Notes: a model not told the origin generated them from the sequence alone. Numbered from the whole stretch's first letter, positions 14,901 to 62,669 are shown. The stretch: DNA of 63,162 bases, filler included, from Reclinomonas americana ATCC 50394 (GCA_048213135.1; 4 parts of 2 records of this genome joined end to end with filler, not necessarily neighbours in it); one strand, 5' to 3'. Translations and numbers: made by a program.

Positions 14901-15032
14901 AAGAAGCCCACCAAATCTTGACATAGGAGGCGCACATTGGAAGACAAAGAGTGAGAGCGAGAAGACGGCTGCGTTGAACCAAAGACAAGGTAAAAGAGCC
15001 ACGCGCTGGGCACGAAAGAGAGATGTATACAC

Positions 15033-15080
<48 letters not shown>

Positions 15081-21600: not shown

Positions 21601-23214
21601 CGCAGATCCGCAGGAAGACTGTGGTGCCCGCCGGCAGGCCCGTCACGTCCACGAAGTAGGTCGACAGGTTGTTGTTCCACGACTCCGCAGCACCGCTGCC
21701 GTTGGTCGGCGGGATCGAGCTGGTGTCAATGGCGACGGCGGGGTTCACAGTGGCCGCAGTCACCGACGAGGCGCTGGTGGTGTAGTACACCACACGGTAG
21801 GCGCTCACATTCGGAGTCGGCGTCGTCACATTGCTCTGTGAGGCGCTCGAGGTGGCAGTGTTGGAGCCGCCGACGCTGATCGGGGTCGAGAAGTCGAGAC
21901 GCACGCCAGTCGAGAACAGGCGCGAGTACGCCACACCAGTGGGCGCAGCCGGCACCGCACCATTGTTGTCGGTGGTGGCCTGGAGGGAGCCGGCCGCCGA
22001 GGCAGTGGTGTTGTTGTTCACAGTGACGCGGATCTTGGTCGTGTACTGCGTGGCAGCCACAAAGTAGTTGACGGTCCCGCTCGCAATGAAGCCGGTAATC
22101 TGCTGGTAGAAGCCAGAGTTGTACGAGAACAAGCCGTAGAACGAGGTGGCGATGTTGCCGTTGCCAGTCGCGCCGGTGGTGATGGCAGGCTGGTCAGTGC
22201 CGGAGTTGGTCACCGTGTAGGCGGCAGTCGGCGCAGCGGTAGTGTCGCCCGTGCCAAAGGTGGCCGGGTAGTTGAAGGCGACGACAAACGACGTCGAAGT
22301 GACCTGGTCCACAGAGCCAGTGTACGGAGCCACTGCGTAGCCAGTCGGCGTGGCCGGCGCACCCGACGCCAGCGTCACCGTCACGGCAGTCGAGAAGGTC
22401 AAATTGGCACCGTCAGTGCCCGGATGGCCACTGCCGTTGTTGTAGGCGACCGAGATGTCGCACATGACACCGGTCAGACCAGTGACCTTGACGAGCACGC
22501 GGTTGCGCGACAGACCAGAGCTGCCGGCCGGAATGCCAAAGTCGGTCAGGTCGCCAATGGTGGCAACCACAGTCAGGGTACCTACGCCGCAATACGACTT
22601 GATGTACCACGACGGAGCACCACCAATCACGCCCACATTGGCCGCCACACCCTCCCACTCCACCCACGTCGAGGTCGACGTGATGTAGCGCAGGTTGGAC
22701 GACAGCGTCGGGGCCGCAGTCGACACCTTCGTGGCATCCGAGCCGCTGGTGGTCAGAGTGCCGCTCCAGGCCGCAGCCGAGCGGTTCACCTGCGACTCAG
22801 TCCACACGTTGATGGTGTAGCCCTGGCCAGTGGTAGCGTTGGCGGCAGCGAGCGTGCCGATCGTGTAGCCGCGCCACGTGCCAGCAGAGCCAGCATCGGT
22901 GGCGGTCGCAGTGGTGGGACCGGCGTCGCCGATAAGGAACGCGCGGTAGGCAGTGGTGCCGGTGGCGAGGTTGGACGTCTGCTGCACCGTGAGTGAGGTG
23001 TTGATGTCCTGGAACTGATTGGCGCCGTTGCCGACAGAGGAGATGGTCGAGAGACCGCCCTGGCCAACTTGGTCAGCCGGCAGCTGCAACCAGATGGTGG
23101 CCTGAGTGCTGCCAATGTAGTAGATAGCGTTCGAGGACGCGGTGGTGGCAGGAGCGCGGTCTGTAAGAAAGATACAATACAAACGAGTCGATGAGATCTC
23201 AAGTGGAGCGAGCG

Positions 23215-24418: not shown

Positions 24419-24495
24419 GCACATTGGGAGGAAACGAGTGAACAAACTGTGNNNNNNNNNNNNNNNNNNNNNNNNNNNNNNNNNNNNNNNNNNNN

Positions 24496-24507
24496 TTAAT
24501 TAATTAA
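24496..24507. other. Artificial contig linker TTAATTAATTAA inside N run
   Basis: Six-frame stop palindrome centred in ~100 N; identical copies at 33735 and 58534. Confidence 0.95.
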
Positions 24508-24551
24508 NNNNNNNNNNNNNNNNNNNNNNNNNNNNNNNNNNNNNNNNNNNN

Positions 24552-33690: not shown

Positions 33691-33734
33691 NNNNNNNNNN
33701 NNNNNNNNNNNNNNNNNNNNNNNNNNNNNNNNNN

Positions 33735-33746
33735 TTAATTAATTAA
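33735..33746. other. Artificial contig linker TTAATTAATTAA
   Basis: Same linker as at 24496. Confidence 0.95.
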
Positions 33747-33790
33747 NNNNNNNNNNNNNNNNNNNNNNNNNNNNNNNNNNNNNNNNNNNN

Positions 33791-42102: not shown

Positions 42103-45100
42103 TGTGTGTGTGTGTAGTGTGTGAGAGAAGTGTCGTANNNNNNNNNNNNNNNNNNNNNNNNNNNNNNNNNNNNNNNNNNNNNNNNNNNNNNNNNNNNNNN
42201 NNNNNNNNNNNNNNNNNNNNNNNNNNNNNNNNNNNNNNNNNNNNNNNNNNNNNNNNNNNNNNNNNNNNNNNNNNNNNNNNNNNNNNNNNNNNNNNNNNNN
42301 NNNNNNNNNNNNNNNNNNNNNNNNNNNNNNNNNNNNNNNNNNNNNNNNNNNNNNNNNNNNNNNNNNNNNNNNNNNNNNNNNNNNNNNNNNNNNNNNNNNN
42401 NNNNNNNNNNNNNNNNNNNNNNNNNNNNNNNNNNNNNNNNNNNNNNNNNNNNNNNNNNNNNNNNNNNNNNNNNNNNNNNNNNNNNNNNNNNNNNNNNNNN
42501 NNNNNNNNNNNNNNNNNNNNNNNNNNNNNNNNNNNNNNNNNNNNNNNNNNNNNNNNNNNNNNNNNNNNNNNNNNNNNNNNNNNNNNNNNNNNNNNNNNNN
42601 NNNNNNNNNNNNNNNNNNNNNNNNNNNNNNNNNNNNNNNNNNNNNNNNNNNNNNNNNNNNNNTTCTCTCTGGCCTCTGCTCCTCTTTCCAGCGATCATGT
42701 ACTCTGCTTTGTTGCTCTTTCTCTCTTTCTTGGCCTCCTTGGATGCTCATTTCCTCTCCTTCTTCAATCGCGTGGTCTGTTTCTTCGTTCCTCATTGTTT
42801 CGACCCGCCCATCACTCTCTCGCTTGGCCTCCTTCCATACCCACTCCTTCTGCTCTTCTACTTCTCTACTTTTTCGATCGTCTGCTCTTCTTCCTTGCTT
42901 CACGTCACAGTTTGAATCATCCACTCTCTTTGCCTTGCCCATCGCCCGTTCCCTCAGCCTCGTACCAACTGCTCCTCATCTTTCAACGTTCTCCATCGCC
43001 TGTATCAACCGGTCCTTCCTTTCTCAATCTCGGTTTCTCCATTTACCTTTATAATTAAACTCCTTGATACTCCTCTGCCTTCGATCTTGTTCTCTGCGTA
43101 TTCCTCCCCTTTCCTGTCTCCTTTTCCTTCTCCCGCCACTCATCTCCCTTTTCCCTCCCCCCGCAGTGTGCAACCGAGTGCTGGAGCGTCAGCAGGCGCA
43201 CAAGACAAGGTGTTTACGTTTCACGACGTGTTGCCTCCGGAGAGCAGTCAGGCGCAGGTTTTCGAGCGCGTGCGGCATGTGGTCGATCGCGTCATGGATG
43301 GCTTCAATGGCACCATCTTTGCCTATGGACAGACGGTTTGTGTCTTCTTGGAATCCACAGTCTCCATCTCAGCACCGCTCTTCTTCTGGCCCACCAAACA
43401 GACCTCCTTCTATCGCTGCTCTTTCTCCATCCTCTCCTCTCTTTCTCTTTCCTTTCCTGTCTGCTTCCCCTGTCTCACCCTTCCCGTCACCTTCCAGGGC
43501 TCGGGCAAGACATACACAATGGAGGGCTACCAGTACAGCGTCTCTGAGGAACGCGTGCAGGCAGAGATTGATGTGCGTATTGCTCATCGCTCGACATGAC
43601 ACGCGCATCCTCGCTTAATTGGTGCTGCGTGCAGGGTGGTGACCCGGAGAGCTGGGGTGTGATGCCTCGCAGCATTGAGTATCTATTTCGTCAGATCGCC
43701 AGCGCACCCGCACACCTCAAGTTTACTGTGCGATGCTCGTTGCGTGGCGAGAGGGAAAGACCGCTCTTGCTGAGAATAATAGACCTGACGGAGCTGCTGC
43801 GCAGCTTTATTCAAATCTACAACGAACGTGTATACGATCTGCTGAATCCCGGCAGCTTCCAATTGCATCAACGGTTGCAGAGTTGCGTTGTGATGGCGTG
43901 AGCACGTGCGTAGTGTATCCACGTGCTGACCGTGGTGGACGACAGAGGGGCAGCAGCTTCCACCCGGCCTGCGCGTACGATGGACCAAGAGACGCGGCTT
44001 CTACGTGGAGAACATGTACTCATTCGACTGCGATACGCACGAGGAAGTCAAGTTGCGTGATTCTCCCTCTCTCCGTCTCCCTCCCTGTCCCTTCTTCTCA
44101 CTCCCTTTCCCCTTCTCACCCCCTCAGGCGCCTCTTCGACTCGGGCGTCTCCAACAAAGTCATGGGCACGCATCGCCTCAATCTCAATTCAAGTCGCGCC
44201 CACTCCATCTTCACGGTTCATCTCGAATGCCACGACACCTCCTCCGACCGCACCTCCAAGAGTTGCGCTCTTCCGCGCATTCTCTGTCTCCCACACATTG
44301 CTCACCGACACATCGCGCAGGCAAGCTGAGCTTGGTCGATCTCGCCGGTTCCGAACGCATCCAGCAGCTCGCCGACAATCCCTCGTCGCAGCTGGTGCGC
44401 GAGAGCATCGAGATCAACCGATCGCTGTTCACACTGGGCAAGGTGCGCGATACTGCTTGCCAACTCCATTTTTCCCAACTCGTCTCATGATTCGTTTTCA
44501 TTCCTTCCCCCTTCTCCATTCCCCCCTTTTCGCTCCCCTGTTCCTTCTCCTTCCCTTCCCCACAGGTCATCTCCGCCCTCTCCACCGCCAAATCATCGAC
44601 GCACATCCCGTACCGCGACTCCAAGCTGACCCAACTGCTAAAGGACTCACTCGGCGGCAACTCATACACCGTCATGATCGCCTGCATCACTCNNNNNNNN
44701 NNNNNNNNNNNNAGAGAGAGAGAGAGAGAGCCTGCCATTTCTCAAGCGAGAGAGTCGCTGACGCCCCTCGTTGCAGAACAAGCGACTGAAGGAGGAGATT
44801 CAGTACTTGCGGCAGCTCAGCTCCATTACTGGCCCGAGGGGCGCTGGTGACGGAGCCGGTGCATCGTCCAGTTGCGGCAATCTCTGGCAGTGCATTGCAC
44901 ACTCATGTCTACGTGCTGACTGCTTTTGTTTCGAGCAGAGTCTGTGCTCGGTGACCTGTCGACTGCGGACCTGGAGGATGTCACCAACCGCTTGGTCGAG
45001 TCGGTGCAAGTGATCAAGGTGCGCCTTCTTTTGCACGCACTTGCCTGCCTCTCGTCTCCCTCACCACCGTGCAGGGCATCTTTGAGGTACACAAGACCCT

Positions 45101-48013
45101 CCACGAATCGTTCGACACCATCACCGGCGAGAACGCGCAGCTGCAGCGCTCTGTCGACGATCTCATGGCGGAAAACTACTCGCTCCGTGAGCGGCTCGAC
45201 ATTCTCGAGAGCGTACTCATGCAGCCCGATTACGACAGTGGCAGCGCAGGGCGGTCAGCAGATGCATCGGCCCCCTCCGCTGTCAGCGCCGAGACCACGT
45301 CGGCGACGGCTGCGGCCGGTGGCGACGAATCATATGTCGATCCCACCACTGTCGAGCACGACAAGAAGATTGCCGCGTTTCTGCAATATGTTGCGTCTCT
45401 CGTGTCTCCAATCGTCCCCTGTTGTTCCGCTGCTTCTGTTTCCGCACTCTCCCTGTTGCCATCTTGCGCGCTCTTCCGCACATCGTACCACGTCATTTTC
45501 TTCTCCTTTTTCTTCTTCTTCTTCTTCTTCTTCTCTCTCCATCCACTGTTTCCCGTCTCCATTCCGTCTCCTTACTTCGCTTATCTATATCCCACTAAGT
45601 TCTGGCATGCACTATCTTCCATCCTCGATGTTTCATCCACCTTTGCTCTTCCGCATCTATTTGCCTCTGTTCCCGCGTTCGTTCCTTTCTCCCTTCGTTC
45701 ACGTCTCCTCCTTCCGCTCCTTTCTTCACCACTTCTTCGTTACTCAATGCCCATTGACGCTCCACATCCTTCGCCTCCGTTTTCTCACTCTTTTTTCTCT
45801 CCACGTCTTTCGTGAATTCACATCTCCACCTTCCAGCTCTTCTTCCTTCCGCCTCGCTTTTCTCCATCCCACTTCTTCCTGCCACCCTTGATCTTGCTTT
45901 GCAATTTCTCTCCACCGCCCGCTCCATTACTTTCCTCCCTCATGTCTTCGTTTCCCGACATCTCGCTACGCTGGACCTTTGCCCTCCGTCGCCCTCCATC
46001 TCTTCCCTCTCTGCTTCCTTCCATCCATCTTTATCACACCTCCTGTCCTTTCCCATCTTCCCCTCCCTTACCTATCTCTTCTTCTCCCTTCTTACCCTCA
46101 CTTTACCCTCCCCCTTCCCCTCCCCCCGCAGTGGCGCGAGCAATACCTCCAAGACCTACAATCCCACCTGGAGGCCATCAACGGCTCACCCTCAGCCACA
46201 CCAGTGCAAGCACCCTCCACCGACGCCCTGCACGCGGCACTGAATCGCCACGTGCGCGAATTTCTGGGTGATGCCACGAAGCGCAGCATCATGCAGCGGG
46301 AGGTTGGCACGCAGACAGCCGGTTCGTCTCCTCGCCAGTCACTTAAAAATGCTCTCCATTAACCGCCATTGTCTCTCTCAGACGACGCCTCGCCGAATCT
46401 CGTGTACATGCAAGTCGGTGCGCAGCTCACGTCGCCCAACGCCTCCACCACCTCGGCGTTCCAGTACCTCGAGCAGCGCCTCCCTGCTGGTCCACCTCCG
46501 GCGGCCGCCGCTGCGGCGTCCAGCGAGGGTACCACCGACGACGACGACAGTCAGCGCGTGGGCACGGCAGAGCCGGCGGGCCAGCGGCAGGCACTGCGAC
46601 GTGACAATCTGCGACCGTCGCGCGATCACGTGCAACGCCTGCATCGATCGCGCTCCACGTCGCCCGCCGCCGACAAGGTACTGGCCGAGTTGCAGTCGCC
46701 CAAAACGGGCGCCGAGGTGGCGGCCACAAACTCGCCTCGCAAGTCGCCGCCGCGGAAACCTAAGACCCCGCAGCGCTCGCGACCACCCTCGCGACCGTCG
46801 TCGCCGGCCAAGCGTGGTGCGGCGGCCGCGGCGGCCGCCCTCACATCGGTGATTGAGAGTGTGCCGAGTCGCACCCCTTCGCGACCGTCATCACCTCCGC
46901 CGGCTCCCAAGCCACCACCAGCCTCGTCGCGCAGCAGTGGCGTCAAGTCGCCACTCCGCGCCAAGTCACCGAAGGTTTCGTCGAAAAAGACGGCCGCCAC
47001 CGCCGCCGCGGACAGCGCAGCGCAGTCGTCGCCGTCATTACCACCGGCACCGCCACCTCCACAGCCGCCTGCATCGGATCCACCACCGGCTGGCTCGCCA
47101 AAGGCGAAACGCACGGCGCGCCTCAAGTCACCAGCGTCGGAGCAGCAGCAGCAGCAGCCACCGGCGTCACCGAATCGGTCGCGACCGACGACACCCGGCG
47201 CGCGCCACAAGAAAAAGGCAGTCGAGTCTCCGCAGGCGCTAGAACAACTTCAGCAGCAGCAGCAACAGCAGTCTCCGGCATCGCCGAGTCAATCGAGGCC
47301 ATCGACTCCCGGTGGTGGTGGTGGCGGCGGTGGTGGCGGCGGCACTCGCCCCAAGAAGAAGAAAAAGCTGGTGGATTCATCGCGCCCGCACACACCGACG
47401 ACCGCCTCCGCAGGCGTGAGTAAGAGCGCGGGTGTGCCAGAACATGGAGCCGTCGTCGTGGAGAAGGAAGAGGAGGTCGGCGACAATGCGACGGACTCCC
47501 CTGGTCGGAAGCGAGCAAGCAAGGCGAAGAAGAGCAAGAAACGAGCGGAGGCGAGTGACGAGACGACTGCAAAGAGCAGTGCTGTGCCGCACCTGTTGGT
47601 TCCGCCACTGGATCTGGGCGCCACGTCGCCGTCCAGTGCATCGTCCGCGTCGCGCTCACCATCGTCGTTTGTGGAGGGTGCCGCGCCTGCGGGTGCGGAC
47701 AGTGACACGCGCGCCTCATCACTGAGTCCGCGCCATACTCGCCGGAGCCCGTCCCAGTCACCGCGATCGTCGCTGTCGCGCGATTCCATCTTGGCACCGC
47801 TGCATCGCTCGCCCGTGGAACCCGTCACGGATGCAACACACTTCAAGAAACAACGACGGCGATCACCGTCGAAGCAGCGGCCGTCGACCGCCAACGCAGC
47901 AGCGGCGGAGGTCAGTCACATGCTCGAGCAGCACCGACGACAGGAGCAGGAGGCGAAGCGGCAGCTGGCACTGGCCACGGCGCTGGCTCGCCGGCGCAGG
48001 AAACAAGTGCGAG

Positions 48014-48044
<31 letters not shown>

Positions 48045-50230
48045 TCACGGTTCTTCGCCACGATCCAAGCAGCGCGGCGGTGGCAAGCATCATGGGACGA
48101 CCTCGCCCCGTCACGGCGCTGGTGGCGACGCGGCCTCGGAACTCATGGGCATTTTGAACACGTCGGGCATTGCCGGCCTGCTGGCACTCGTGTCGCAGGC
48201 GGCTGTCCTTGACGACGGACGACCACAGTCCGCGGTTGGCGCGAGGACCTTGCACAATGGCAGTGGAAACGGCAGCATGTCGGCCCGCCCGCACACTGCC
48301 AACTCCGCCATCAGTGGCATCGATCTTGGCACCACGCCCGGCCTCAAGTCACCGCGCGGAATGCTACAGGCACAGGGCAGGCCCTCACATACGACACCCA
48401 CCGCTCCACCACCGCCACCATCATCGTCGTCGGTCCGGCCGCGACGACCGAGTCACAGCAGCCAGACGCAAGCCAATGTGCCTTCATTACGGCTTCCTGT
48501 CATCAGCACCGGCCAGCAGCAGCGTGTGGACATGCCTGGTGGTGCCGACGAGGACACAGCAATGTTGCAGCAGTTGTTGAACGAGCAACTGAGCCACCAG
48601 CGAAATCTGCAGGAGCGGATGACCGAGCGCGCACGCGCCTCCCTGCGCTCACACAGTCCGCATTCGCGCTCGTCGCGCAGCGGCGACGATTCCAGTCAGG
48701 AACCTCCTGCCGCTGTCGTTGCCGCTCCTGTGGCCAGTCCCCGCCAAAATCGGCCTCAGCGCAGTCTGTCGGCCCGACCACGCCGCCACACCATCAACAG
48801 TGCCGACCGCAGCTCACCGAGCCTCAGCGAGCGACCGCTGGTGGAGACCAGTGCCCTGCTCTCGCCGCCGCTTGAGACGCAGGGGTTGGACGATGAGCGC
48901 CTGCTGTCGGTTCCGCGCGGTCCCACACTGGCTCCCGCTTCCGCTCATCGAGTAGTGAGTTGCTTCTCACTTACCGTCACACAATCGAAGTGGAGAGTGA
49001 CAAGAACGATGCTATGTGCACAGATTGCGGAAGCGATATCTCGGCGCATCAACGACCGGCCGAGCTCGACGCCGTCGCCCACCAGACCAAAACTACCATC
49101 GCCACCGCCGCCACCGTCGCACAGTGCGTCTGCTCCGATTTCTTCGTCACGCTCCTCTGTTTTGGTGCTTATCTTCGTTTGCAGAAGCCACCGCTGCCGA
49201 GGGTCCACTGCCGAGCGACTCGCCACTCCGAGCCTTCCGCAAGGCCGTGTCGCCGAGCGCTATCATGCGCACGGGAAGCACATCGCCGTCCAGCAACCGT
49301 ACTCCGTCGCCCGTCACCAATGAGCTGATGATGGTGCTCGGCAGTCGGAGAACGTCCGGTTCGCACTCTGGGTCCGTGTCGGCTCGCAGCATGAGCCCCG
49401 TCGATGGTTTGTGAGCACGCAGTTTGTTTCTCTGTCCCACGCACACACGTATAGGCTTCGTCTCACTCACCTCTTGTGCAGCTCTCGGTCGGCAGCGCAA
49501 TCCAATGTTGCCACGACGGACCGACGCGCAATGGCAGCCACCGTCGTTGGCCATGAGCGATCAGGCGCGCCGCAAAATGTTCCGCAAGCAAATGCCGCAG
49601 TACATGACGGACGCTGTGCAGCCAGCGCCGCCTCCGCCACCACCAGCCCCACCATACCTGTCACGACAGAATCGCGGAGCCGGTGCGGCGCAGTCGTCAC
49701 CGTCGGTCATGAATCGTCCCAACGGACCGGCATCGCACAAACCGCACTACACGCACACCCGCCAGCTGGCGCGACCCAGTTCGTCGGCCGCCATCACTCG
49801 CGGAGGAAACGGTGCCGGTGGCGGCGGCATCGGCAACGGCACGGATCTGGTGGCTCTCGAGGGTTTCATTCGCGGTCTGGGCGCACAAGTGGGCGGCGGC
49901 GGCGCTCCACCAAGTGGATCCCGTCGTTCAGCTGCTGTTGGTGGTGGTGGTGGTTCGGCTGCTACCGCCTCCGCGTTTGCCAGTGCCTCGCCGTACAACA
50001 AGGCGTCGGCTCGCGGTCGCTCGCGCCCCGAGACACCCGTGTACGACGTCAACGCCAATCCGATGCTGGCCGTGCTGCAGCAACTGGCGAGCCGCGGAGG
50101 CGGTGATGGTTTTGGTGGTGGTGGCGCTTCGGCCGCGGCCATGAGCAGCACCGAGGATCTGCTGGAGCTGCTGAATGAGCGTGCAGCCATGCGCAATGCG
50201 CAAAACCTGCAACAATCGCTGCCGCCATAA
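41827..50230 (+). CDS. Kinesin, KIF12/kinesin-16-like N-terminal motor with coiled coil and very long disordered tail
   Basis: Spliced motifs [78 protein letters not shown] resembles the KIF12 VRWxKxRGFYVE signature. Ends TAA 50228-50230. Start codon uncertain; the motor C-terminus falls in gap 44693-44712. Confidence 0.9.
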
Positions 50231-51735: not shown

Positions 51736-54700
51736 CTACTGCCTCTGCGCCAATAGCAGCTCCTCCAAGCGCTGGAGACGCGCAGTGAGCGAGTTGATCT
51801 GCTGCTCCTGCTCGCGCAGCTTGCGGTTCTGCTCCTCAATGAGCGACGTCTGCTCGTTGACAGCTTCGACCAGCACTGCCGTCATGCGCGGGTAGTCGAC
51901 CGTCAGCACGTCCTTGATGGGCGCGTTGTCCGAGGTCGACGTCACCATGTGCACCAGCTCGGGGAACACGCGCTGCACGTCTTGCGCCAGCACACCAATC
52001 TCCAAGTGGTCCACCTCAATCTTGCGCTGAATGGTCTTGGCCGCCATCTCGTTCCACCGGTACTTGTAGGCGGTGATCTGGCGCAGGGAGCCAAGCACAT
52101 TGTCGATGCGCGTGAGGTCGGTCTTGAGACGCTCATCGGACGAGTTGACGAGGTCGGTGTAGATGCGGTGCACGAGGCCAGTACGCGTCTTCCAGAACGG
52201 AATGTCGGCGTTGGTCATGTAGTCGGCCGTGTACAGCTGCACGTACGAGGCATTGGTGGCCGGGCTGAACGACACACCGCGCTCCGCGATCATGATGGCA
52301 CCAGCGTCGGCGCGCAGGTCGTTCGTGAACGACGACACACCTGGCAACAAAAAACAAGAAGTCAGCAACACACGTTTCACCTCTTGCGCCCTCCTCTCCC
52401 CTCTTCCCTCTCCCATCGAAAACGCACCAGCAACCGACAGAGTCGCCGAGGCATTGCTGAGGCTGACGTTGCCGGTCAGCGTGCTGACGCCGGCCACGGA
52501 CAGCGTGCCTCCGAGGGTGGTGGCGCCGAGGTTCACCGTCAGCGTGTTGCTCGCCGAGATGGTCACGTTGCCGTTCAAGGTGCTGGTGTCCGACACGACC
52601 AGCTTGGCGCCGAGCGTGGCGTTGCCGGCCACAGACAATGTGCCATTCAGCGTGGTCACACTGCTCGTGCCGACCGTGAAGTTGAAGCCGTTCGAGATGG
52701 CGACATTGTTGCTAAATGTCGAGGCGCCGCCAACCGAAAGCGTGCCCGAGAGCGCCGTCGCACCGGCTGTCACACTCAGACCGCCGCCAAAGCTGGCGAG
52801 TCCAGTGGTCACTGTGAATGTGGCTCCCGTGCCGACAGTCACCGTGTTCTGTGAGGAGCGACAAGAGAAGCACAAGAGTGAGATCACACAAAAAAAAAAC
52901 ATGGTATCATCATCATGGACTGCTGCTACACAACGCAACATTGAGAGTGGCAACACCAGCCAGCGTGAATGCGCCGGCCATGGTAGTGGTGCCGTTGCCG
53001 ACGACCAGATTGACGCCAGGTGAAATGGTCACCGTGTTGCCAAAAGTGGAGGTGCCCGTCGCCGACAGGCTCGTCACCGTCGTCACACCCGTGACGTTGA
53101 CAGTGCCGGCAAAGGTGCTGGCGCCGTTGCCCATGGCAAAGGTGCGCGAGTTGCTGATCGTCACGTTGCCGTCAATGTTGGTTGAGCCGTTGACGGACAG
53201 CGCGTTGTTCAAAATGGTCACGCCCGCCACCGTCAGCGCGCCGCCAAAGGTCACCGCGCCAGTGCCCACAGTGAGCGTCGAGGTTCCATTGATGGCCACG
53301 TTACCGGAGAAGGTACCTGATTTTTTTTTCGCATCGACAGACAGACAATGAGACGAACAGCAATAGATAAAAAGAGATGTAATGGCTACGCACCCGCCGC
53401 AGTGGTCACACCACCCGTCAGCGTCGCCAAACCGGTGACCGCGAGTGTGCCGCCGAGAGTGCTGGCGCCGGCATTCACGCTGAATGTGTTGGCGTTGAGC
53501 ACAGCGAGCGAGCCGTCAAAGCTGGCGGCCTTGCCCGTGATCGAGCCCGTAAACGTGGACGTCAGACCGGTCACCGACAGAGTGCCGCCAATGGTGGTGG
53601 CACCCGTGGTCACCGTGAATGTCGAGCCGCCACCGACAGACACGTTGCCGCTGAATGTGGCAGCCTGAGCAACCAGACTGGCGCTGAGGGTGGTCGCACC
53701 CGTGACGCCGAGCGTGCCGCCGAGAGTGGTGGCACCGCCGGTGGCCACCGAGAAGCTGTTGCCGTTCAGCACCGACAGGTTACCGTCAAAGTTGCCGGCC
53801 TTGGCAGACAGCGCACCCGACAGCGTCGTCAGGCCGGTTACGCTCAACGAGCCACCGAGCGACGTCGCGCCAGTGCCGACCGTAAACGTGTTGGCATTCT
53901 GCACCGCCACTGCGCCATTAAAGGTGGCATCCTTGGCGGCGACAGTGGCCGCAAACGTGCTAATGCCGCCCACCGACAGCGTTCCAGACAGCGACGTGGC
54001 ACCCGTCGACACCTAACGCAAAAGAAAACCAAGGAGGTGAGTACACGAGCGCGGATGGATACAAAGAGTGTGCGTGTCTGTGCAAAGTTGGCACGCACCG
54101 TCAAGGTGGCGCCCGTGCCCAGAGTCACGTTGCCGTTGAGCGTGCTGGTGCCGGCGACAGTCAGCGTGCTGGAGAGGGTGGTGGCCAAGGTCACGCCGAG
54201 GGTGCCGCCAATGGTGGCGTTGCCCGAGACGAGCGACAGGTTGATGCCCGTGTCGAGGGTGACCGCGCCCTTGAACAGCGACGTCGAGTTGACCGTGAGC
54301 GCCGCGAGCGTGGTCGCTCCCGTGACCGTGGCCGTGCCGCCAACCGTCAGGTTGCCCGACGTGAGTGCCAGGTTACCCGCCGACAGAGTTGCGCCGCCAG
54401 AGAATGTCGCCAAGCCGGCCACACTGAGCGTGCTCGACAGCGTGGCGGCACCCGAAATGGCCGCCGTGCCCGACAGCGTCGTTGCACCGCCGACAGTCAG
54501 CGTGTTGGTGCCGCTCACCGTCACATTGCCGCCAAACGTCGACGCCGCACCCGTCGACACACCACCGGTGAGGGTGGCCAGGCCGGTCACACCGAGTGTG
54601 CCGCCAAATGTCGCCGCACCGGCACCGACAGAGAAGGTGCTGGTGGCACCCGTCACTGCATACGAGTGAAGAAAAGGTGAGTAAAAAAATGATTCTATGG

Positions 54701-57700
54701 AAGAGAATGAAGGAGAAACGCACCAGCGACAGCTCCCGTAAACGTCGCCGCAACACCATTGAGCGAGCCACTGAGCGTCGTCAAACCACCCACCGACAGA
54801 GCGCCAGTGAGGGTGGAGGCACCGGCGACCGACAAGGTGCCAGGTGTGCCCGTCACAGCCAGCGAGCCGTCGAATGTGGCCGCCTGTGTAAAGTACACGA
54901 TAAGTGACATACTCGGGAAATAAAAACTCACAGACAAACAGACAACAATAAACAAACAAACCTTGCCCGACACCGCCTGCAGGGTGGTGGCGCCAGCGGA
55001 GACTGTTAGGCCGCCACCCAGCGTGACCAGACCAGTGCCGACAGTGAGCTGCGAGGCACCAGAGAGCGTCACGTTGGCGGCAAACGTGGAGGCGCCGCCA
55101 ATCGACAACGTGCCCGTTGCCGAGGCGTTGCCCGTCACGCTGACACCACCGCCGAGCGTCGTCAGACCCGTGCCGACCGTGAACGTGTTGGCGTTGGAGA
55201 CGGCCACGGCGCCGTTAAAGGTGGCACCGACGCCACTCAGTGCCGCCGACAGCGTGGTGGCACCAGTCACATTCAGCGCGCCGCCGAGCGTCACCAGTCC
55301 GGCGCCCGTCGTCAGCGTCGTGGTCATGCCGACAATCGACACGTTGCCATTCAACGTGGTGGTACCATTGGCAACCACGCTTGACGCAAATGTGCTGGCA
55401 CCGCCAACAGACAGCGAGCCCGTCATGGTGGTGGCTCCAGTTCCAATCGACACCGCCTGCCCATCAGACACCGTCACCGGTTTCTGGAAGAGCGCGGCAC
55501 CGTTCGTGGTCAATCCGCCAGTCAGTGTGGCCACGCCGGCCACCGCCAGTGTGCCTCCGAGGGTGGTGGCACCCGTTCCGACCGTCAGAGTGCTCGTGCC
55601 GGTAATCTGCGCAGAGTTGTGTGAGTAATCAAGCAATCAAAAAAACAAGAAATTGAAAATAGAACGCACTGAAACGTTGCCGCTATGCGTGGCACCGGCA
55701 CCGACAAACGGTTGGCTAAACGTGGCCACACCGCTGACCAACAGCGTGCTCGACAGAGTGGTAGCGCCGCCGACCGCCAGTGTGTTGCTGCCGAGCACAG
55801 TCACGGCCGCACCGAAATCGGCACCACCCGTCAGTGTCGACTTGCCCAGCACCAAGGCCGTGCCGCCCACAGAAATGGCACCCGAGGTCGAGAAGAGACC
55901 GGTGCCGAGTGTGAGCGTATTGGTGCCCGAGATGCTCACATTGTTGTTCAGCGTCGCAGTACCAGTGACGACAATGTTGCCGGTAAACGTCGAGGAACCG
56001 CCGACACTCAGAGCGCCAGTCAAGTTGGCGGGTCCGCCCTGCACACGCAGCTCGGAACCGGTGCCCACAGTCACCGCGCCCGTCAACGTCGAAATGCCGC
56101 CCACCGACAATGTCGTGGACACTGTGGCAGCGCCAGTCACCGACAAGCCGCCGCCGAGCGTGCTCAGACCAGTGCCAGTGGTGAATGTGCCCGATCCGCT
56201 AATCGACACGTTGCCGTTGAAGAGCGCATTGCCGCCGACGGTCAGCGTGGTGCTCGCCGTCACGGCACCGGTCACGGTCAGAGTGCCGGCCATGGCCGAG
56301 GCGCCGGTGCCGACCGTAAACGTGGCCGCATTCGCCACCGTCACGTTGCCGTTGAGGGTCGAAGTGCCCGTCACGGCCAGCGAGCCACCGAGAATCGTGG
56401 CACCGGTGCCGACGGTGAAATTGTTGGCGTTGGTGATGGTGACCGAGTTCTGGAACGTGACCGGCTGGCTGGCAGTGATTGTGCCGGAGAACGTCGACGC
56501 GCCACCAACACTGAGCGAGCCCGTCAGCGTGGTGGAGCCGCCGGTCACCGTCAGCGGCTGGTTCGTGGACAGCGTCACCGCACCGTTGAAGGTGGCGGCG
56601 CCTGTGGTCAACGACGTCAGCGTGGTGATGCCGGCCGACAGAGTTCCGTTAATGGTGCACCCTCCGTCGCCAATGGTCACGGCGTTGCCGTTCGACACCG
56701 TAATGGCGCCGTTGAAACGCGAAGTCGAGTTGGCCGTCAGCGCACCATTCAAGGTCGCCACACCAGCCACCGTCAGTGCACCGCCGAGGGTGGTGGCACC
56801 CGTGCCCACTGTCACCGTGTTGGTGCCCGACACACTCACACTGTTGTTGAAGGTGCTGGCGCCAGAGACAGTGACAGCGCCGCCGAGTGTGGTCACACCA
56901 CTGGTGACCGTCAGCGAAATGCCCGTGTCCACCGTCACATTGCCCTTGAAGAGCGACGTGCCATTCACTGTCAGCGCACCGCCCAGTGTCGCAGCGCCCG
57001 TGCCGGTGGTGAACGTGCTGGCCGCGCCAGAAATGGACACGGACGAGCTGAACGTCGATGTGCCACCAACACTGAGCGTGCTCGTCAAGGTGGTGGCGCC
57101 AGTCACCGCCAGCGTACCGCCCAGGGACGAGGCGCCTGCTCCGACAGAGAACGTGGTCGTCATGCCGCTCACCGACACGTTGCCGTTGAAGGTGGCGGTG
57201 CCGTTGGCAATCAGAGCGCCGGTCAGCGTGCTGCCGCCAGTCACCGCCAGCGTACCACCGAGCGCAGTTGCGCCGCCGACCACGGTAAACGTGCTCGTGC
57301 CAGTGACACTGGTGTTGCCGGCAAACGAGGCCGTGGAGGACGTGGCAAGTGTCGTCAGCGTGGTTGCGCCGGTCACCGACACGGCGCCCAAGAACGAGCT
57401 CAGTCCAGTGCCCGAGGTGAAGGTGTTGGCGCCGCTAATGACCACCGCGCCACCCAAGGTGGTCGCGCCGGCCGTCGTCAGTGCCTGCACATTGGTGGCA
57501 CCGGCCGACACCGTCAGACCACCGCCAAGAGTGGTGAGACCAGTGCCGACAGTCAGCGTCGACGGAGACACAATGTTGACGGGGTTGTTGAAGGTGACGG
57601 CTCCAGAGAAGCTGGTGGCACGCAGAGTTGTGATGCCCTGCGCCTCGAAATCGCCCAACAGCAACACCTTGCCAGTGCCGACATTGACCGTGTTGGTGCC

Positions 57701-58695
57701 GGAGACCGACAGCGTACCGTTCAGCGTGGTGGCACCAGCCACCGTCAGCGAGCCACCGAGAGTGGTGGCGCCAGTTGCCACCGTAAATGTAGAGCTGTTG
57801 GTGACCAACGTAGCGCCACGGAACTCCGCCGTCGAGGCCGCCGTAAAGGCACCGCTAATCGTCGTCACGCCCGAGGTCACCGAGAGGCCGCCACCCAGCG
57901 TTGTCAGACCAGTAGTGGTGCTGAGCGTGGAGCCGCCAAGCAAAGCAACATTGCCGGAGAAGTTGGCCGCGTTCGCCGTGAGCGTGCCAGTCAGAGTGGT
58001 CGCGCCCGTCACCGAGAGGGAGCCGCCGAGTGAGGTGGCGCCAGTGCCCACCGTGAGAGTGTTGGCACCGGAGAACAGCACGTTGCCGGTGAACGTGGTG
58101 ATGCCGCCAACCGACAGCGTGCCCGTCAGCTTAGTGTTGCCCGTCACCGTCAGGTCGCCGCCAAGAGCCGTGGCAAACGTGCCGCTGACCGTCAGCGTGT
58201 TGTTGACAGTCGTCACACCGTTCAGCGAGGCTGTGCCGGCGGCCACCAACGGACCGTTAAAGGTCGAGGTGCCCGTGCCCACCGTGAAGGAGAACAAGTT
58301 CGCGATCGCCACGTTGTTGTTGAACTGCGAGGCACCCGATACGGTGAGCGGACCGCCAATCGTCACTGTGCCGGTGCCCGTGGTCACCGTGTTCGTACCC
58401 GACACCACGAGGTTGCCGTTGAGGGTGGACACACCACCGACAGTGAGCGTGTTGCTCAGTGTTGTGCCGCCCGTCACCGCCAGAGTTGANNNNNNNNNNN
58501 NNNNNNNNNNNNNNNNNNNNNNNNNNNNNNNNNTTAATTAATTAANNNNNNNNNNNNNNNNNNNNNNNNNNNNNNNNNNNNNNNNNNNNGGAGTCTCGAG
58601 GGAAGGGGGAAGGAGGGAGAAAGGAAAGGAGATGATGATGAATGGAGAATGGATAGAGAGAGAGAGAGTGTGTGTGTGTGTGTGTGTGTGTACGT

Positions 58696-58726
<31 letters not shown>

Positions 58727-61700
58727 ACATTGCGCATGGTCAACGTGGGAGTGGTGGCGCCGAGAGTCAGGTCGTCCGTCAGCAAATTGAATGTGCCCGA
58801 GAGCAGCATAGGGCCGACGGCGGGAAGACGGATCTTTTCGACTCCATTGATCATGAACACCAGGTTGTCAATGGGGCTGGTGGAGCCTGTGTGTGCGGGT
58901 GGGAGAGCGGGAAGAGTGATGAGCACACAATCTCTCATTTGAGTATCATCTCTCACTCCCTCGTCATACCTGTGCGTTGCGCAAACATGCCCGTGTTCTG
59001 ATTCGACTCAAAGGCGTAACCGAGGTTGTCGGTGGTCGTAGTCGTGGGAATACCGACCGACACACGCGTGCCGCCCGTCACTTCCAGCGAGGCGACGGGC
59101 GTGGTCGACGAACCAACGCGCAGCTTGCCCACCACAGTACCGCTGCCCGTGGCGTAGTAGGTGCCGGTGATGTTGAGCGCGGTGGCAAACGTCGAGCCAA
59201 TGGTCAGACGCGGCGTGCTGTCCACCGACAGGTACAGTGGAGTGCCGTCGGCAGTGGTACCTGTGCAAGAGAGATGAGAGGCGGCTGGCAACAAAATAAA
59301 GTGCTTGTGTGCACAAACCTCCCGCAAAGAGACCCGTGTCGCCATTAATGTCAAAGGCGTAGCCGGCGGGTGGAGAGCCCGAGTTGCCGGCGACTGTGCC
59401 TTGGCTGACGCGGATGCCGCCAAAGACGCGCAGGAGTGAGTTCACGCTTGAGCTGCCAATGGATACTGCGCCCGAGGTGACCGACATGCCGGCGTTGCCA
59501 ATGGTGACGCCACCGGTGAATGCGTTGTCGCCATTCACTGCAGAGAAGGGGAAGGGTGAGGGAAGGGGAAGGGGAAGGGAGAAGGAAGGGAAGGGGAGAA
59601 GGGAGAAGGAAGGGAGAGGGAGAAGAGGGGAAGGGGAGGGAGAAGGAAAGGAAGGGGAGAAGGAGAGGAAGGGGAAGAGAGAAGGAATGGAAGGGGAAGG
59701 GAGAAGGAAGGGAAGGGGAAGGGCGAAGGAGAATGGAGAGGGCAAGGCAATGGAAGGGATCAGTGAATGCAAGAAGGGGAAAGGAAGAAAGGATGACGAA
59801 AAGAGCAAGTGAGACGGCGAGGGATGCGAACGAGAAAAAAGGGAATAAGACAAGCGAGAGACTTGAAGAGAGCGTCGGCAAGCGAGTAGAAGCAAGTTTG
59901 ACAGGCAAATGAAACCACAGAGGAACACGAAATAAGTATGAGCCAGAGCAGTGGACAAGGAAAGTAAGTACTCTCATGAGTGTGTGTGTGAGAGAGTGAG
60001 AGGAGAGAAGTCAGTTGTCCGCACGCAACATTGAATGGTGCTCCCACTCTGCACCAGGGCATTCAGGCTGTTGATTTGCACATTGCCGCGCACATCCAGC
60101 GACGAGAACACCACAGCGGCCTCCGACAACGACGCCGGCAGCACGAGGCGCTTGTTGGCCGAGGTGTAAAAGGACATGATTTGCGGAGTCGTCGTCTGCT
60201 GCAGCTGCCGCCCGCCCGCCGACGACGGCGTCACAAACGGATGCCGCAAGGCGGCAGACTCGATTTCCTCGCCCGCCTCCTCTGCGTCGTAGCCATGCTC
60301 CAAATCGAGCGCCTGGTCGCCTCCATCGCTGCGCGCCGACGACGACGCACCAGCAGGAATGGAGGAATCAAAGAGACGACGACGCTTGGCGCCAGCGCGG
60401 CGAGCCGACAATGACGACGGCACAGGCGGATAACCGAATGGTGTCGATGTGGATGACACCGTGGTGGTGGTGGAGAAAATGCCCGTGCCGTCGACTCCTT
60501 GCGAGCCGAACACGATACCGATATCCTTGGTACTCGTTGTGGGTTCGCCTGAAGACACACGCAAACCGCCAGCGACGGCGACGGAGCGATCGGCGTTGCA
60601 CGTGTTGAAGCCGACCGTGGAAGTACTACTTGTGCTATTCGTACAGATGACGCCTGGAGAGGGGGAAGGATGAGAACAAGACGAAGGGGAGACAGCCGGG
60701 GTCGATGCGCTTACCATTTTTTACAACAAGATCACCGCCAATGACGGCATCGCCGCCCGTTGACACCGTGCCGGCGACAGCCACATTGTTTTTCATCTGC
60801 ATGTTGATGATTGTCAGCTCATGTCTCGCTCACAGGAATGACACATGCATTGCACTCGCCTTTAGAACAAAATACGTAATAAGGAACGCTCCGAGCAGGA
60901 GCACGACGAGCGAGATGATGATGACCCAGATCAAGCACACTTGCTTGCGACTCTTGGAGTACGTGTACTTGACGTGCTCGTCCACCTGCGTCGAGCGAGA
61001 GTGAGAAAAGGCTGTCGCCCCCTTTCTTTCCTCTTTTCCCCCTTTGTGTCGTACCTTTTCAATGCTGCGTAACCTCGGCGCCGGCGGCAACGGCAGCCGC
61101 GGCGGCGGGGCAATGGCACGACCAGTGCGTGGCGTGGACAACGAGGGTCCGGTGCCCGATAGGGGCTTGAGCAGCGGAATCGGTCGCGCGTCAAACGTCG
61201 GTGCGGGATCATCCAAAACTGTAATGGCGGTGGCCGGGCGCGAGGGGAACATCAAATCGCGCTGGAAGCCGAGGCCGCCGGAACTGGCACTGCCGCGATA
61301 CGGGCCCGCCATGCTCAACTAGGCACAAGAACACAAAGGGGAAGGGTCAGTGTATGGGTGAAGAAGAAGGAGGCGGGAAATTGTGACTCAACACTGCTGG
61401 GTCCTCCCATGTACCGCGTGAGGGCGCCACCACGTGGCGTCGACATGTCAAACTCAATGTCGGTGACTCCCGCCGCCGACATGTTGCTGCGTGTTCCGTA
61501 CCCACTGACACTGCTACCGGTCGACGACTCGTCATCGGGCTCCATAATCGACATTTGGTGCTGCACGCTGCGCGTCGACATGTCCAACTCGCGCGGAGTG
61601 GCGTACGTGTCGAGTGGGCGCGGCGATTGTGGGTAGGCGCGTGGTGAACCGCCTCCGTCGCGCGGAGTGGGCGACATGTAGCCACTCAGGGGATTGGTCA

Positions 61701-62669
61701 GTGGCGGGGGTGGAGGTGGTGGCGGTGGCAGGCCCTGTGGGGTGGTGAGAAGCGGGGAAGGGGACAGGGGGAATGGAGGTGACGACGAAACTGTGGGTGT
61801 GGAGGCTCCAAATGGTGGTGCAAAACCGGAGCCGAGGGGGATGCCGCTGCCAGAGGCGCTGCCGGGGGCGCGGGCGGAGAGGAAGCGCACTGCGGGGAGG
61901 GGGTGAGAAGGGAAAGGGGAAGGGGAGGGAGGGGAAAGGAACACATCCTGCAGAAGGGACAAGGCAAGCGGGCAGAAAGGAGCAAGAGCAGAACAAATGA
62001 AGCGGGGATACGCTGGTGGAGCGGAGACGAGGAAAGAAATTGCTTTGTCGTCCGAGAGAGAGAGAGAGAAGACAACAGGAACACGAGCTTCACGTCCTTT
62101 GTTGAGCAGAAGGAGCAAAGGTAAGCGAGCAGAGAGTAATAGAATGAGAAGAGACAGAAGAGAAAAGAAATGCTTTGGTCAGAGAGAGAGAGAGAGAAGG
62201 AAACAGAACACAAGCTTTGCATCCCTCATCCTACGGAACGAGCAAGGCAAGCGAGCAGAGAGTCATAGAAATAACAAGCGCAGTGACACTCAACAAATGA
62301 AGCCGAGAATGCTGTCGGACAGAAGAGAAAGAAATTGCTTTGTCGTCAAAGAGAGAGAGAGAGAGAGAGAGAGAAGGAAACAGAACACAAGCTTTGCATC
62401 CCTCATCCTACGGAACGAGCAAGGCAAGCGAGCAGAGAGTAATAGAAAAACAAAATGAGCGACGACTACGTTTGCCCGCGGAGAGGTGAAAGAGGAAAGA
62501 AATCCCCATTCTTTGTCATAAAACAAACAAGCACGGCAAGCACACTGCGACTACCTGCTACTCATTCAAGCACAACAAAGCAAAGAGAAAAACAATTCAA
62601 CCAAACATGCCAATGACCATAAGAAGAGTGGCGAACAGCGCGGGTTGTCTGATTCTCTTGCCCATACAT
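51736..62669 (-). CDS. Giant type II membrane protein with tail-fibre-like beta-repeat stalk and C-terminal Peptidase_S74 intramolecular chaperone
   Basis: At least 16 exons. Pro-rich N-terminus; TM CLIWVIIISLVVLLLGAFLITYFVL (60863-60937) preceded by KSRK; three GG.RVS.G...G.AF...TG.F modules; ~1,900 aa of TTLGGxLxVxGA-type repeats; then SDERLK...IGVLAQDVQRVFPELV...VDYPRMTAVLVEAVNEQ plus coiled coil, TAG 51736. Continuity across the 58490-58589 gap and the ATG at 62669 are inferred. Confidence 0.82.
58534..58545. other. Artificial contig linker TTAATTAATTAA
   Basis: Same linker as at 24496. Confidence 0.95.
61950..62520. repeat. Intronic direct repeats (~180 bp unit)
   Basis: gagaaggaaacagaacacaagctttgcatccctcatcctacggaacgagcaaggcaagcgagcagagagt at ~62192 and ~62371; diverged copies at ~61955 and ~62065. 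Confidence 0.85.

Follow-up and report, generated by a model that had tools for sequence, protein, structure and literature searches.

The locus examined here occupies positions 51,736 to 62,669 of a 63,162-nucleotide (nt) stretch of DNA from Reclinomonas americana ATCC 50394 (GCA_048213135.1; four parts of two records joined end to end with filler, hereafter the window). It carries a long gene for a fibre that ends in a Peptidase_S74 (ICA) domain, and it raises the question of whether such a fibre gene belongs to the host or to a virus. An earlier note on this DNA had described it as a spliced eukaryotic gene for a membrane-anchored, phage-tail-fibre-like filament with an autocleaving chaperone. 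That observation as a whole was confirmed by the open frames, the PF13884 match and the intact Ser and Lys residues. Of its interpretation, the spliced gene in a host context, the S74/ICA domain and the virus-type fibre, here modelled as a homotrimer, all stood, while the cellular role is still something that we infer. It is secure that the locus is a real eukaryotic gene, spliced and intact, which encodes a fibre of virus type equipped with an S74 chaperone, and the homotrimeric state of its stalk is well supported by modelling. The reading that we favour, with a confidence only slightly above even, is that it is a nuclear, spliceosomally spliced gene for a host-resident trimeric fibre of viral type, which is probably anchored in a membrane in type II orientation and used by the host.

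As shown in Table 1, the gene lies on the minus strand and consists of 15 exons, separated by 13 complete introns and one that enters a scaffold gap, which gives 14 introns instead of the 15 or more counted previously. When the seven introns (63–91 nt) of the half after the gap are removed, eight exons join into one frame of 6,204 nt encoding 2,067 amino acids (aa). Its sole stop is the terminal one, compared with 125 and 23 stops in the other two frames of the spliced sequence. Removal of the six introns (58–492 nt) of the half before the gap joins seven exons into a 706-codon frame starting from the ATG at 61677. The encoded protein has at least 2,773 aa, and about 8.3 kb of coding sequence contains neither a frameshift nor an internal stop. 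Open frames that emerge only after intron removal cannot be produced by chance.

Twelve of the 13 complete introns are of the GT-AG type and one is GC-AG, and a CTSAY-like branch motif is found no more than 50 nt from the 3′ site in 12 of the 13. The G+C content is 0.35–0.61 in the introns, compared with 0.52–0.68 in the exons. The post-gap introns all end in AG, and their 5′ hexamer is GTGCGT in five of the seven, GTTTGT in one and GTTGCG in one. The five that start with GTGCGT (within 52341–55669) come directly after a G. Since GGTGCG would code for Gly-Ala in the repeats, the question is raised of whether these introns may have arisen within the repeat sequence itself. Intron 4 is 492 nt long, against 58–91 nt for the other 12, and 59545–59759 within it is an array of 11-, 17- and 61-nt units, GA-rich as numbered here and CT-rich on the coding strand.

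The 5′ end of the gene had to be revised. The Pro-rich N-terminus that had been described corresponds to a poly-Pro tract upstream of the first in-frame ATG, in a frame that is open to 62178 and contains no ATG. The 5′ limit of 62669 was likewise not upheld, because the region 62178–62669 consists of tandem repeats and microsatellites without coding evidence. Tandem repeats of 126 bp occupy 62025–62270 (about two to three copies, 79% matches), a further copy can be made out by eye as far as about 62460, and 62350–62374 is an (AG)n run. The whole stretch upstream of the ATG is probably a 5′ untranslated region (UTR) or promoter, or conceals an unseen 5′ exon, and its 126-bp repeat region (62025–62460) may be a promoter or 5′ UTR element. 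An upstream ATG near 61947, combined with a candidate intron GTGCGC...CAG (61890–61735), was rejected as it gives no open frame into exon 1.

The domain that defines the fibre type is located in the last exon, C-terminal to the modelled trimeric stalk and separated from it by an intron. The profile search that the earlier note had proposed gave a match to PF13884 with E = 5e-15 and 56 bits against a cut-off of 22, covering profile positions 1–58 of 58. In the translation, the predicted nucleophile Ser and general-base Lys are exactly at the codons claimed for them, five residues apart (S-x4-K) in SDERLK, and the IGVLAQDVQRVFPELV and VDY motifs, the latter as TVDYP, are present as well. In an alignment of the last exon with 39 short relatives (40 sequences), S67, D68, K72, G115, A118, Q119 and P126 are invariant in all 40, and R70 is conserved in at least 90%. 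An oxyanion Arg has been described for endosialidase. Among proteins of solved structure, the sequence matches the long tail fibre of phage S16 (6f45, E = 6.7e-7) and MYRF (7dc3, E = 3.8e-4), with SSDERLK opposite SSDRRIK in 6f45 and opposite the mutated site in 7dc3.

The AlphaFold2 model of the last exon, built on the 40-sequence alignment, has a predicted local distance difference test score (pLDDT) of 79.5 overall and above 85 over aa 70–200. The ICA domain of MyRF (7dc3_B) is its best Foldseek match (E = 7.3e-7, TM-score 0.73, root-mean-square deviation 2.4 Å over 120 columns), followed by the endosialidase ICA domains 3gud and 3gw6 and then the T5 fibre 4uw8. Among the BFVD models, 367 match at E ≤ 0.001. 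They are mostly phage tail-fibre ICA proteins, and one is a 'putative endosialidase' of Heterosigma akashiwo virus. The terminal coiled coil that had been noted is present as a 51-residue helix. In the alignments to phage S16 and MyRF this helix falls within their ICA domains, which indicates that it belongs to the ICA fold instead of being a separate module. A Ser-Lys dyad and trimerisation-dependent self-cleavage are established for endosialidases and MYRF (PMC3742443), and by analogy cleavage before the Ser of the last exon would release a C-terminal fragment of 134 aa.

The stalk comprises the first 1,867 aa after the gap. It is nearly uncharged (1.7% charged residues) and rich in Thr (22%), Gly (18%), Ala, Ser and Val, and it has 43 N-x-S/T sequons. 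Its autocorrelation has maxima at lags of 45 (0.243), 89, 44, 33 and 12 over a background of 0.135. When the sequence is aligned on the TFTVGTG motif, 11-residue units appear in threes or fours, forming super-repeats of 33 and 44–46 residues. The autocorrelation and the motif layout therefore replace the previously reported unit of about 12 residues with one of 11. A Pfam search of the 950-aa open reading frame (ORF) of the stalk found no family at E ≤ 0.1, neither PF04519 nor YadA anchor nor collagen.

A 290-aa piece of the stalk (aa 311–600, window 56690–57559) reached a low pLDDT of 54.9 when modelled as a monomer. With three copies, the multimer modelling that had been proposed for the trimeric stalk gave a score of 0.92 (0.91, 0.92 and 0.92 in the individual runs), compared with 0.00 for the best of three controls. 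The runs had a contact agreement of at least 90% and a partner pLDDT of at least 96, and contacts between the chains, about 2,070 in number, extend over the full length of the piece. The closest inter-chain contacts link residue i to residues i+6 to i+8 of the neighbouring chain, not to i+11. In the calibration of this score, which is only roughly valid for three copies, 21 of 30 proteins with structures solved as pairs attained the mark, compared with none of 23 solved as single chains. The model supports, but does not prove, that the stalk is an intertwined homotrimeric beta fibre. Its length would presumably be of the order of 50–100 nm if 33 residues correspond to one turn of a three-sided helix, a geometry that we assume and that is unsupported by coordinates.

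The half before the gap supplies a cytoplasmic tail and a membrane anchor in the gene model. Residues 1–221 are rich in Ser, Pro, Gly and Arg and match no family. The sole strongly hydrophobic segment in either half is VCLIWVIIISLVVLLLGAFLITYFVL, at aa 222–247 (60863–60940 (−)). It is preceded by KSRK, which suggests an N-in, type II orientation, in agreement with the single transmembrane helix and charge bias reported before. The intron that follows it, intron 2, is the GC-AG one and has CTGAC 21 nt before its 3′ site. GT-AG alternatives exist at 60844–60797 (48 nt) and 60868–60797 (72 nt), and all three of these best in-frame splices keep the transmembrane helix. Exons 3–7 then encode 458 aa rich in Gly, Thr, Ser and Val. 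In the charged linker of this region, KRRR (aa 365–368, 60376–60387 (−), context ARRAGAKRRRLFD) lies 118 aa past the helix and is a possible dibasic processing site that could allow shedding.

Exon 6 contains VGSSTTPVASLEVTG, a degenerate copy of the motif VGIGTTSPxxKLxVxG, which occurs in 55 of the 150 best S74 relatives and in 40 of the 91 of those with at least 400 aa. A PHROG scan of six pre-gap exons gave one weak match (E = 0.003), and a Pfam search of the pre-gap ORFs gave sub-threshold noise only. Atlas feature look-ups of exons 6 and 4 returned the same viral 'hypothetical protein' clusters, with scores of 0.94 and 0.90, 95–119 of 256 features in common and recognition values of 2601 and 1759. 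These matches are a lead only and may be compositional. A candidate tail-fibre motif, GYxF...DTGMF, was dropped as evidence because it is absent from all 285 proteins examined.

The two halves meet at the interruption at 58490–58589, which is real, as had been stated, and consists of N44, TTAATTAATTAA and N44 with stops in all six frames. The identical 100-nt spacer also occurs at 24452–24551 and 33691–33790, beside N runs of other lengths, and the window, a draft eukaryotic sequence, has 17 N runs. This composition indicates that scaffold pieces were joined here over an unknown distance, and that the 100 nt do not measure a gap. The three spacers look like markers of joins of unknown size, so that adjacency across each of them is not guaranteed. 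On one side of the spacer, exon 7 stops at a donor (AAT/GTTTCG) without a stop codon. On the other side, the frame of exon 8 is open from the first base and has no start. That the fibre carries the upstream transmembrane helix is the most parsimonious reading and, in our estimate, a fairly probable one, because the halves lie on one strand and each supplies what the other lacks. In addition, the ectodomain would otherwise start without a targeting signal, and two genes only 27 nt apart would be odd.

On the favoured reading of a host-used, membrane-anchored fibre, assembly may be pictured as follows. The C-terminal ICA domains would trimerise first, as established for endosialidase, T5 pb1 and MYRF. 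Nucleated by the ICA trimer, the stalk would fold like a zipper from its C-terminal end to its N-terminal end, with the three chains intertwining as in the model. The ICA domain would then cut itself off just before its Ser, freeing the 134-aa fragment. The cytoplasmic tail of about 221 aa and the single transmembrane helix of the gene model would hold the mature trimer in type II orientation, with the filament extending outward from the cell or into a lumen, and cleavage at KRRR could shed it. Long residence in and use by the host are suggested by the 14 host-type introns, the host-like G+C content, the host neighbours and the lack of any relative above about 40–55% identity. The most likely role would be that of a cell-surface adhesion or coat filament; the fibre could also be a virus-interference element.

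Several points weigh against this reading. All exon junctions are predicted from DNA alone, and the exon 2–3 junction would depend on a GC-AG donor or a weak GT donor. If intron 2 is left unspliced, the TGA at 60831–60833 ends a transmembrane protein of 258 aa, and the next ATG (MQMKNNVAV...) comes 27 nt after it. The spacer might conceal a mis-join, a stop codon, an exon or a further gene. Searches of Pfam, PHROG and NCBIfam gave no significant match for the pre-gap ectodomain, and its viral likeness consists of the one degenerate motif and weak Atlas scores with few shared features. The stalk trimer is a model and may echo a memory of solved triple beta-helices. A neighbouring viral element may sit beyond the approximately 1.5 kb of 5′ flank in view, and the function proposed for the fibre is one that we infer.

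These points bear first on the possibility that two genes are joined by the scaffold only, namely a separate transmembrane protein, ending at the TGA of the unspliced intron 2 or within the gap, and a fibre whose start, perhaps with a signal peptide, is hidden in the gap. The fibre would then be secreted or intracellular, and unanchored. A spacer that marks a join of unknown length, a non-canonical intron between exons 2 and 3 and pre-gap exons that no significant family match ties to fibres are all consistent with this arrangement. It is nevertheless rather unlikely. Both halves are on the same strand, the first ends at a donor and the second lacks a start. The 458 aa of exons 3–7 hold the VGIGTTSP-like motif typical of S74 fibre proteins, and the unspliced reading leaves only those 27 nt between the two genes.

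The origin of the fibre was approached through its relatives. When all 1.84 billion cluster representatives were searched with the S74 exon, 15,682 matched at E ≤ 0.001, 245 at E ≤ 1e-10 and none at E ≤ 1e-30. The best match is 34% identical, and the best 150 of the 15,682 range from 31 to 55%. By sequence, the domain belongs to a huge family of which none of the sampled members is close to it. That no relative reaches 60% identity indicates that the gene is not a recent insertion of any sampled virus. Among 50,697 cultured phage records searched by tblastn, 359 matched the S74 exon, all below 60% identity (26–34% in the best 12 of the 359), and none matched the stalk. Cultured phages thus share the S74 domain only, as judged from these searches.

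Near-length relatives of the stalk number 152 at E ≤ 1e-3 among 7,999 scored candidates (best 4.7e-46), and the best 120 of these include PF13884 in 27 and PF04519 in 10. Longer proteins contribute 35 relatives at E ≤ 1e-3 (best 4.5e-55), with PF13884 in six of the 35. PF04519, or the source names bactofilin or DUF342, are frequent among the stalk relatives. Two relatives carry a eukaryotic label: an fn3 protein of Tribonema minus with 1,925 aa (P0302, E = 4e-23) and a EukProt transcript product with 2,808 aa (P0327, E = 5e-5). Neither an S74 match nor a transmembrane helix was found in these two. One cluster of stalk relatives has loci beside collagen-like tail-fibre and tail-collar genes.

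When IMG/VR contigs were scanned for relatives of the best long match, 98 of 101 candidate stretches were confirmed and 80 loci were kept. Three of the contigs are labelled GVMAG, which we take to stand for giant-virus metagenome-assembled genome (MAG). On one of these (L009), genes for Asn synthase, an Ulp1/adenain-type protease, SNF2, RNase III and DUF5872 precede a pair of neighbouring head-to-tail fibre genes (L009:9929–17034). The first has 1,344 aa and bactofilin-like repeats only, and the second (13993–17034, 1,013 aa) has bactofilin-like repeats and Peptidase_S74 (E = 5e-13). The pair looks like a two-part fibre with the chaperone on the distal part only. A 2,235-aa protein of another contig (L008) has the same TFTVGTGASSLGG... 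33-residue repeat, with 31% identity over 507 aa (E = 2e-22). The stalk relatives on viral contigs are about 27–35% identical to the stalk, and those in L004, L005, L008 and L009 are single uninterrupted ORFs. A scan of IMG/VR with the stalk itself gave one weak locus, scans with P0170 and with P0171 as queries gave none, and NCBIfam gave nothing useful. The phage, bacterial or giant-virus ancestry proposed earlier can be refined: the proteins nearest to the stalk come from uncultured viruses or metagenomes, GVMAG-labelled contigs included, and cultured phages do not share the stalk. By these comparisons the ancestry appears to be of viral type, from giant-virus, polinton-like-virus (PLV) or uncultured-virus fibres rather than from any cultured phage, and transfer could have gone in either direction.

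The neighbourhood of the gene is of host type as far as it is visible. The earlier statement that there are no neighbouring viral genes holds over the 51.7 kb on the 3′ side, and the 5′ side soon passes beyond the end of the window, about 1.5 kb past the first in-frame ATG. Among the 113 other ORFs scanned in the window, no capsid, ATPase, polymerase or integrase was found, and the domain families recognised are kinesin, LRR_6, fn3 and coiled-coil only. A host-type leucine-rich repeat (LRR) gene ends about 450 bp from the stop codon of the fibre gene. The DNA from the S74 exon into this gene is free of N and contiguous on to the first gap at 44693–44712, beyond which a multi-exon kinesin gene follows. 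The exon G+C content of the fibre gene matches that of these host neighbours, and the window contains no second copy of any part of the gene.

A fibre of such ancestry might still be viral, as a relic or as a functioning gene of an endogenised giant virus, PLV or virophage whose other genes lie 5′ of the window or have decayed. The fibre would then serve, or would have served, virions, and the transmembrane exons would belong elsewhere. A published survey of PLVs (PMC12220804), which the earlier note had overlooked, reports that giant fibre proteins tipped by S74 are ubiquitous in PLVs integrated in protist genomes, and that in PLVs of most protist groups modular fibre proteins, which reach 3.9k aa, end in S74. 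This reduces the novelty of the present fibre as well as supplying the rival explanation. Proteins with a stalk plus S74 on contigs labelled as giant-virus MAGs, the short 5′ flank in view and the fact that expression of the locus is presumed only also fit a viral relic. Such an origin appears distinctly unlikely because 14 introns of spliceosomal type interrupt about 8.3 kb of coding sequence with the frame intact throughout, whereas the PLV introns mentioned in the passages of PMC12220804 on introns are self-splicing group I introns only. The host-like exon G+C, the LRR gene just past the stop, the 113 ORFs without a viral hallmark and the absence of any relative at 60% identity among the 1.84 billion representatives also argue against it. 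As for an artefact, whether a contig from contaminating bacteria or phages or an ORF open by chance in DNA of low complexity, the S74 domain and beta repeats are indeed typical of phage and bacterial proteins, but 14 short AT-richer interruptions with splice signals, frames that open only once these are removed and N-free continuity through the LRR gene to the 44693–44712 gap make it highly improbable.

The favoured host fibre can be compared with several known systems. Phage fibres and tailspikes (K1F endosialidase 3gw6/3gud, T5 pb1 4uw8, S16 6f45) likewise end in a C-terminal S74/ICA domain with a Ser...Lys pair. The ICA fold is common to both, a trimeric beta stalk lies upstream (here modelled), and PHROG tail-fibre families score down to E = 1.5e-22. 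Unlike in phages, the present gene is spliced and eukaryotic, and a cytoplasmic tail and transmembrane helix replace the virion-attachment domain. Fibres of giant-virus MAGs and PLVs share the long Thr/Gly-rich 11/33-residue repeats ending in S74, although their genes are uninterrupted ORFs in viral neighbourhoods, in contrast to the 14 introns, host neighbours and membrane anchor found here.

Assembly with the help of an S74/ICA domain is known for the fibres of phages and viruses, and the MYRF family of transcription factors provides the known example in eukaryotic cells. MYRF and Dictyostelium MrfA are, like the predicted fibre, eukaryotic type II membrane proteins that use an ICA domain, and the ICA domain of MYRF is the closest in structure to the last exon even though its sequence match is weaker than that of phage S16. 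The different architecture pointed out in the earlier note was borne out. No Pfam hit to the Ndt80 DNA-binding domain was obtained in 10 ORFs covering 12 of the 15 exons, the other three (27, 72 and 52 aa) being too small. No transmembrane helix lies C-terminal to the ICA domain as in MYRF, the sole one being at aa 222–247 and so on the other side. Unlike in MYRF, the ICA domain forms the very end of the protein, some 2,400 aa or more past the helix and on the non-cytoplasmic side, so that cleavage would shed a small cap instead of freeing a transcription factor.

Bactofilin-like (PF04519) and 'beta strand repeat-containing' fibres have similar short-strand beta repeats, and PF04519 occurs in stalk relatives. 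The stalk itself has no PF04519 match, and its model is that of three intertwined chains rather than of a single-chain beta-helix. Membrane-anchored trimeric stalks are also found in bacterial trimeric autotransporter adhesins, type II membrane collagens and scavenger receptors. These resemble the predicted fibre by analogy, as long homotrimeric rods on a membrane anchor. There is no homology, and the present protein differs in its beta repeat and self-cleaving C-terminal chaperone.

Table 1. Features of the fibre gene and its flanks (window coordinates; splice junctions predicted).
Feature	Position	Strand	Description
Upstream stretch	61678..62669	-	no coding support; open to 62178, no ATG, repeats
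Exon 1	61393..61677	-	from first in-frame ATG; 95 aa, Ser/Pro/Gly/Arg-rich, cytoplasmic side
Intron 1	61319..61392	-	74 nt, GTTGAG...TAG; CTGAC branch-like site
Exon 2	60860..61318	-	153 aa; remaining cytoplasmic region and transmembrane helix
Intron 2	60797..60859	-	63 nt, AAG/GCGAGT...CAG (GC-AG)
Exon 3	60715..60796	-	begins MKNNVAVAGTVSTGGDAVIGGDLVVKN
Intron 3	60654..60714	-	61 nt, GTAAGC...CAG
Exon 4	60030..60653	-	207 whole codons; ectodomain with charged linker, probably disordered
Intron 4	59538..60029	-	492 nt, GTTGCG...CAG; GA/CT-rich 11-17-nt repeat array
Exon 5	59319..59537	-	ends GYAFDINGDTGLFAG
Intron 5	59261..59318	-	58 nt, GTTTGT...CAG
Exon 6	58970..59260	-	holds VGSSTTPVASLEVTG
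Intron 6	58887..58969	-	83 nt, GTATGA...CAG
Exon 7	58729..58886	-	ends at donor AAT/GTTTCG
Intron 7 (start)	58590..58728	-	(CT)n and (CA)n microsatellites; enters gap
Scaffold spacer	58490..58589	.	N44 + TTAATTAATTAA + N44
Exon 8	55670..58489	-	940 aa, stalk repeats; 5′ end open
Intron 8	55607..55669	-	63 nt, GTGCGT...CAG
Exon 9	54962..55606	-	stalk
Intron 9	54884..54961	-	78 nt, GTTTGT...CAG
Exon 10	54724..54883	-	stalk
Intron 10	54656..54723	-	68 nt, GTGCGT...CAG
Exon 11	54099..54655	-	stalk
Intron 11	54013..54098	-	86 nt, GTGCGT...TAG
Exon 12	53394..54012	-	stalk
Intron 12	53317..53393	-	77 nt, GTGCGT...CAG
Exon 13	52940..53316	-	stalk
Intron 13	52849..52939	-	91 nt, GTTGCG...CAG
Exon 14	52428..52848	-	stalk end
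Intron 14	52341..52427	-	87 nt, GTGCGT...CAG
Exon 15	51736..52340	-	200 aa and stop (51736-51738); about 58 poorly modelled residues, then ICA domain
PF13884 match	51949..52140	-	aa 297-360 of ORF 51736-53028(-); Pfam
Predicted nucleophile Ser	52138..52140	-	S67 of last exon; translation, alignment
Predicted general-base Lys	52123..52125	-	K72 of last exon; translation, alignment
C-terminal helix	51742..51894	-	aa 149-199 of last exon (51 residues), pLDDT ~97-98; AlphaFold2

Other parts of the window showed several features in their own right. The kinesin motor domain at 42916–44487 (+) is spread over at least three ORFs, which suggests that the kinesin gene is spliced too and that short introns are the norm in this genome. 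Between the kinesin and LRR genes, 46363–49320 (+) is a 986-aa open frame in G+C-rich DNA without a Pfam family. A tandem repeat of about 1.03–1.04 kb is present in four copies (82–97% identical) at 27837–31245, amid long coiled-coil-like ORFs, and is either a recent internal duplication in a coiled-coil gene or an assembly expansion. In an uninterrupted ORF of 1,019 aa at 18669–21725 (−), two fibronectin type III domains (E = 4.7e-26) were recognised, together with a weak, sub-cut-off likeness to the Ig-like domain of phage tip-attachment protein J (E = 1.4e-4). This ORF has no sequence kinship with the fibre gene.

The S74-capped trimeric fibre is well known as a kind. What appears to be new is the variant that is rich in introns, has host neighbours and no close viral relative and is predicted to have a cytoplasmic tail and a transmembrane anchor. 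Full-text literature searches found no description of such a host fibre; the supplements of PMC12220804 on PLV fibre architectures lay outside that search and may list similar genes. A host-encoded, intron-rich, membrane-tethered S74 fibre would be new. It would indicate that cells can take over a complete viral fibre module, trimeric beta stalk and self-cleaving chaperone together, for use at their surface, and it would offer a concrete case for the exchange of attachment proteins, from virus to host or from host to virus, in the interactions between protists and their viruses. A more specific possibility, which we regard as unlikely but worth stating, is that the host captured a viral attachment fibre, which gained introns as well as a membrane anchor and a cytoplasmic tail and is today presented on the host surface. 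If so, no earlier case would exist of a surface organelle of cells that is built by S74 fibre assembly, and the fibre would be only the second eukaryotic use of S74 after MYRF. The surface fibre could act by receptor interference or as a decoy against giant viruses or PLVs that use related fibres, comparable to domesticated retroviral env. Alternatively, it could be a glycan-binding filament for prey capture or adhesion whose assembly still needs a self-cleaving chaperone of phage type.

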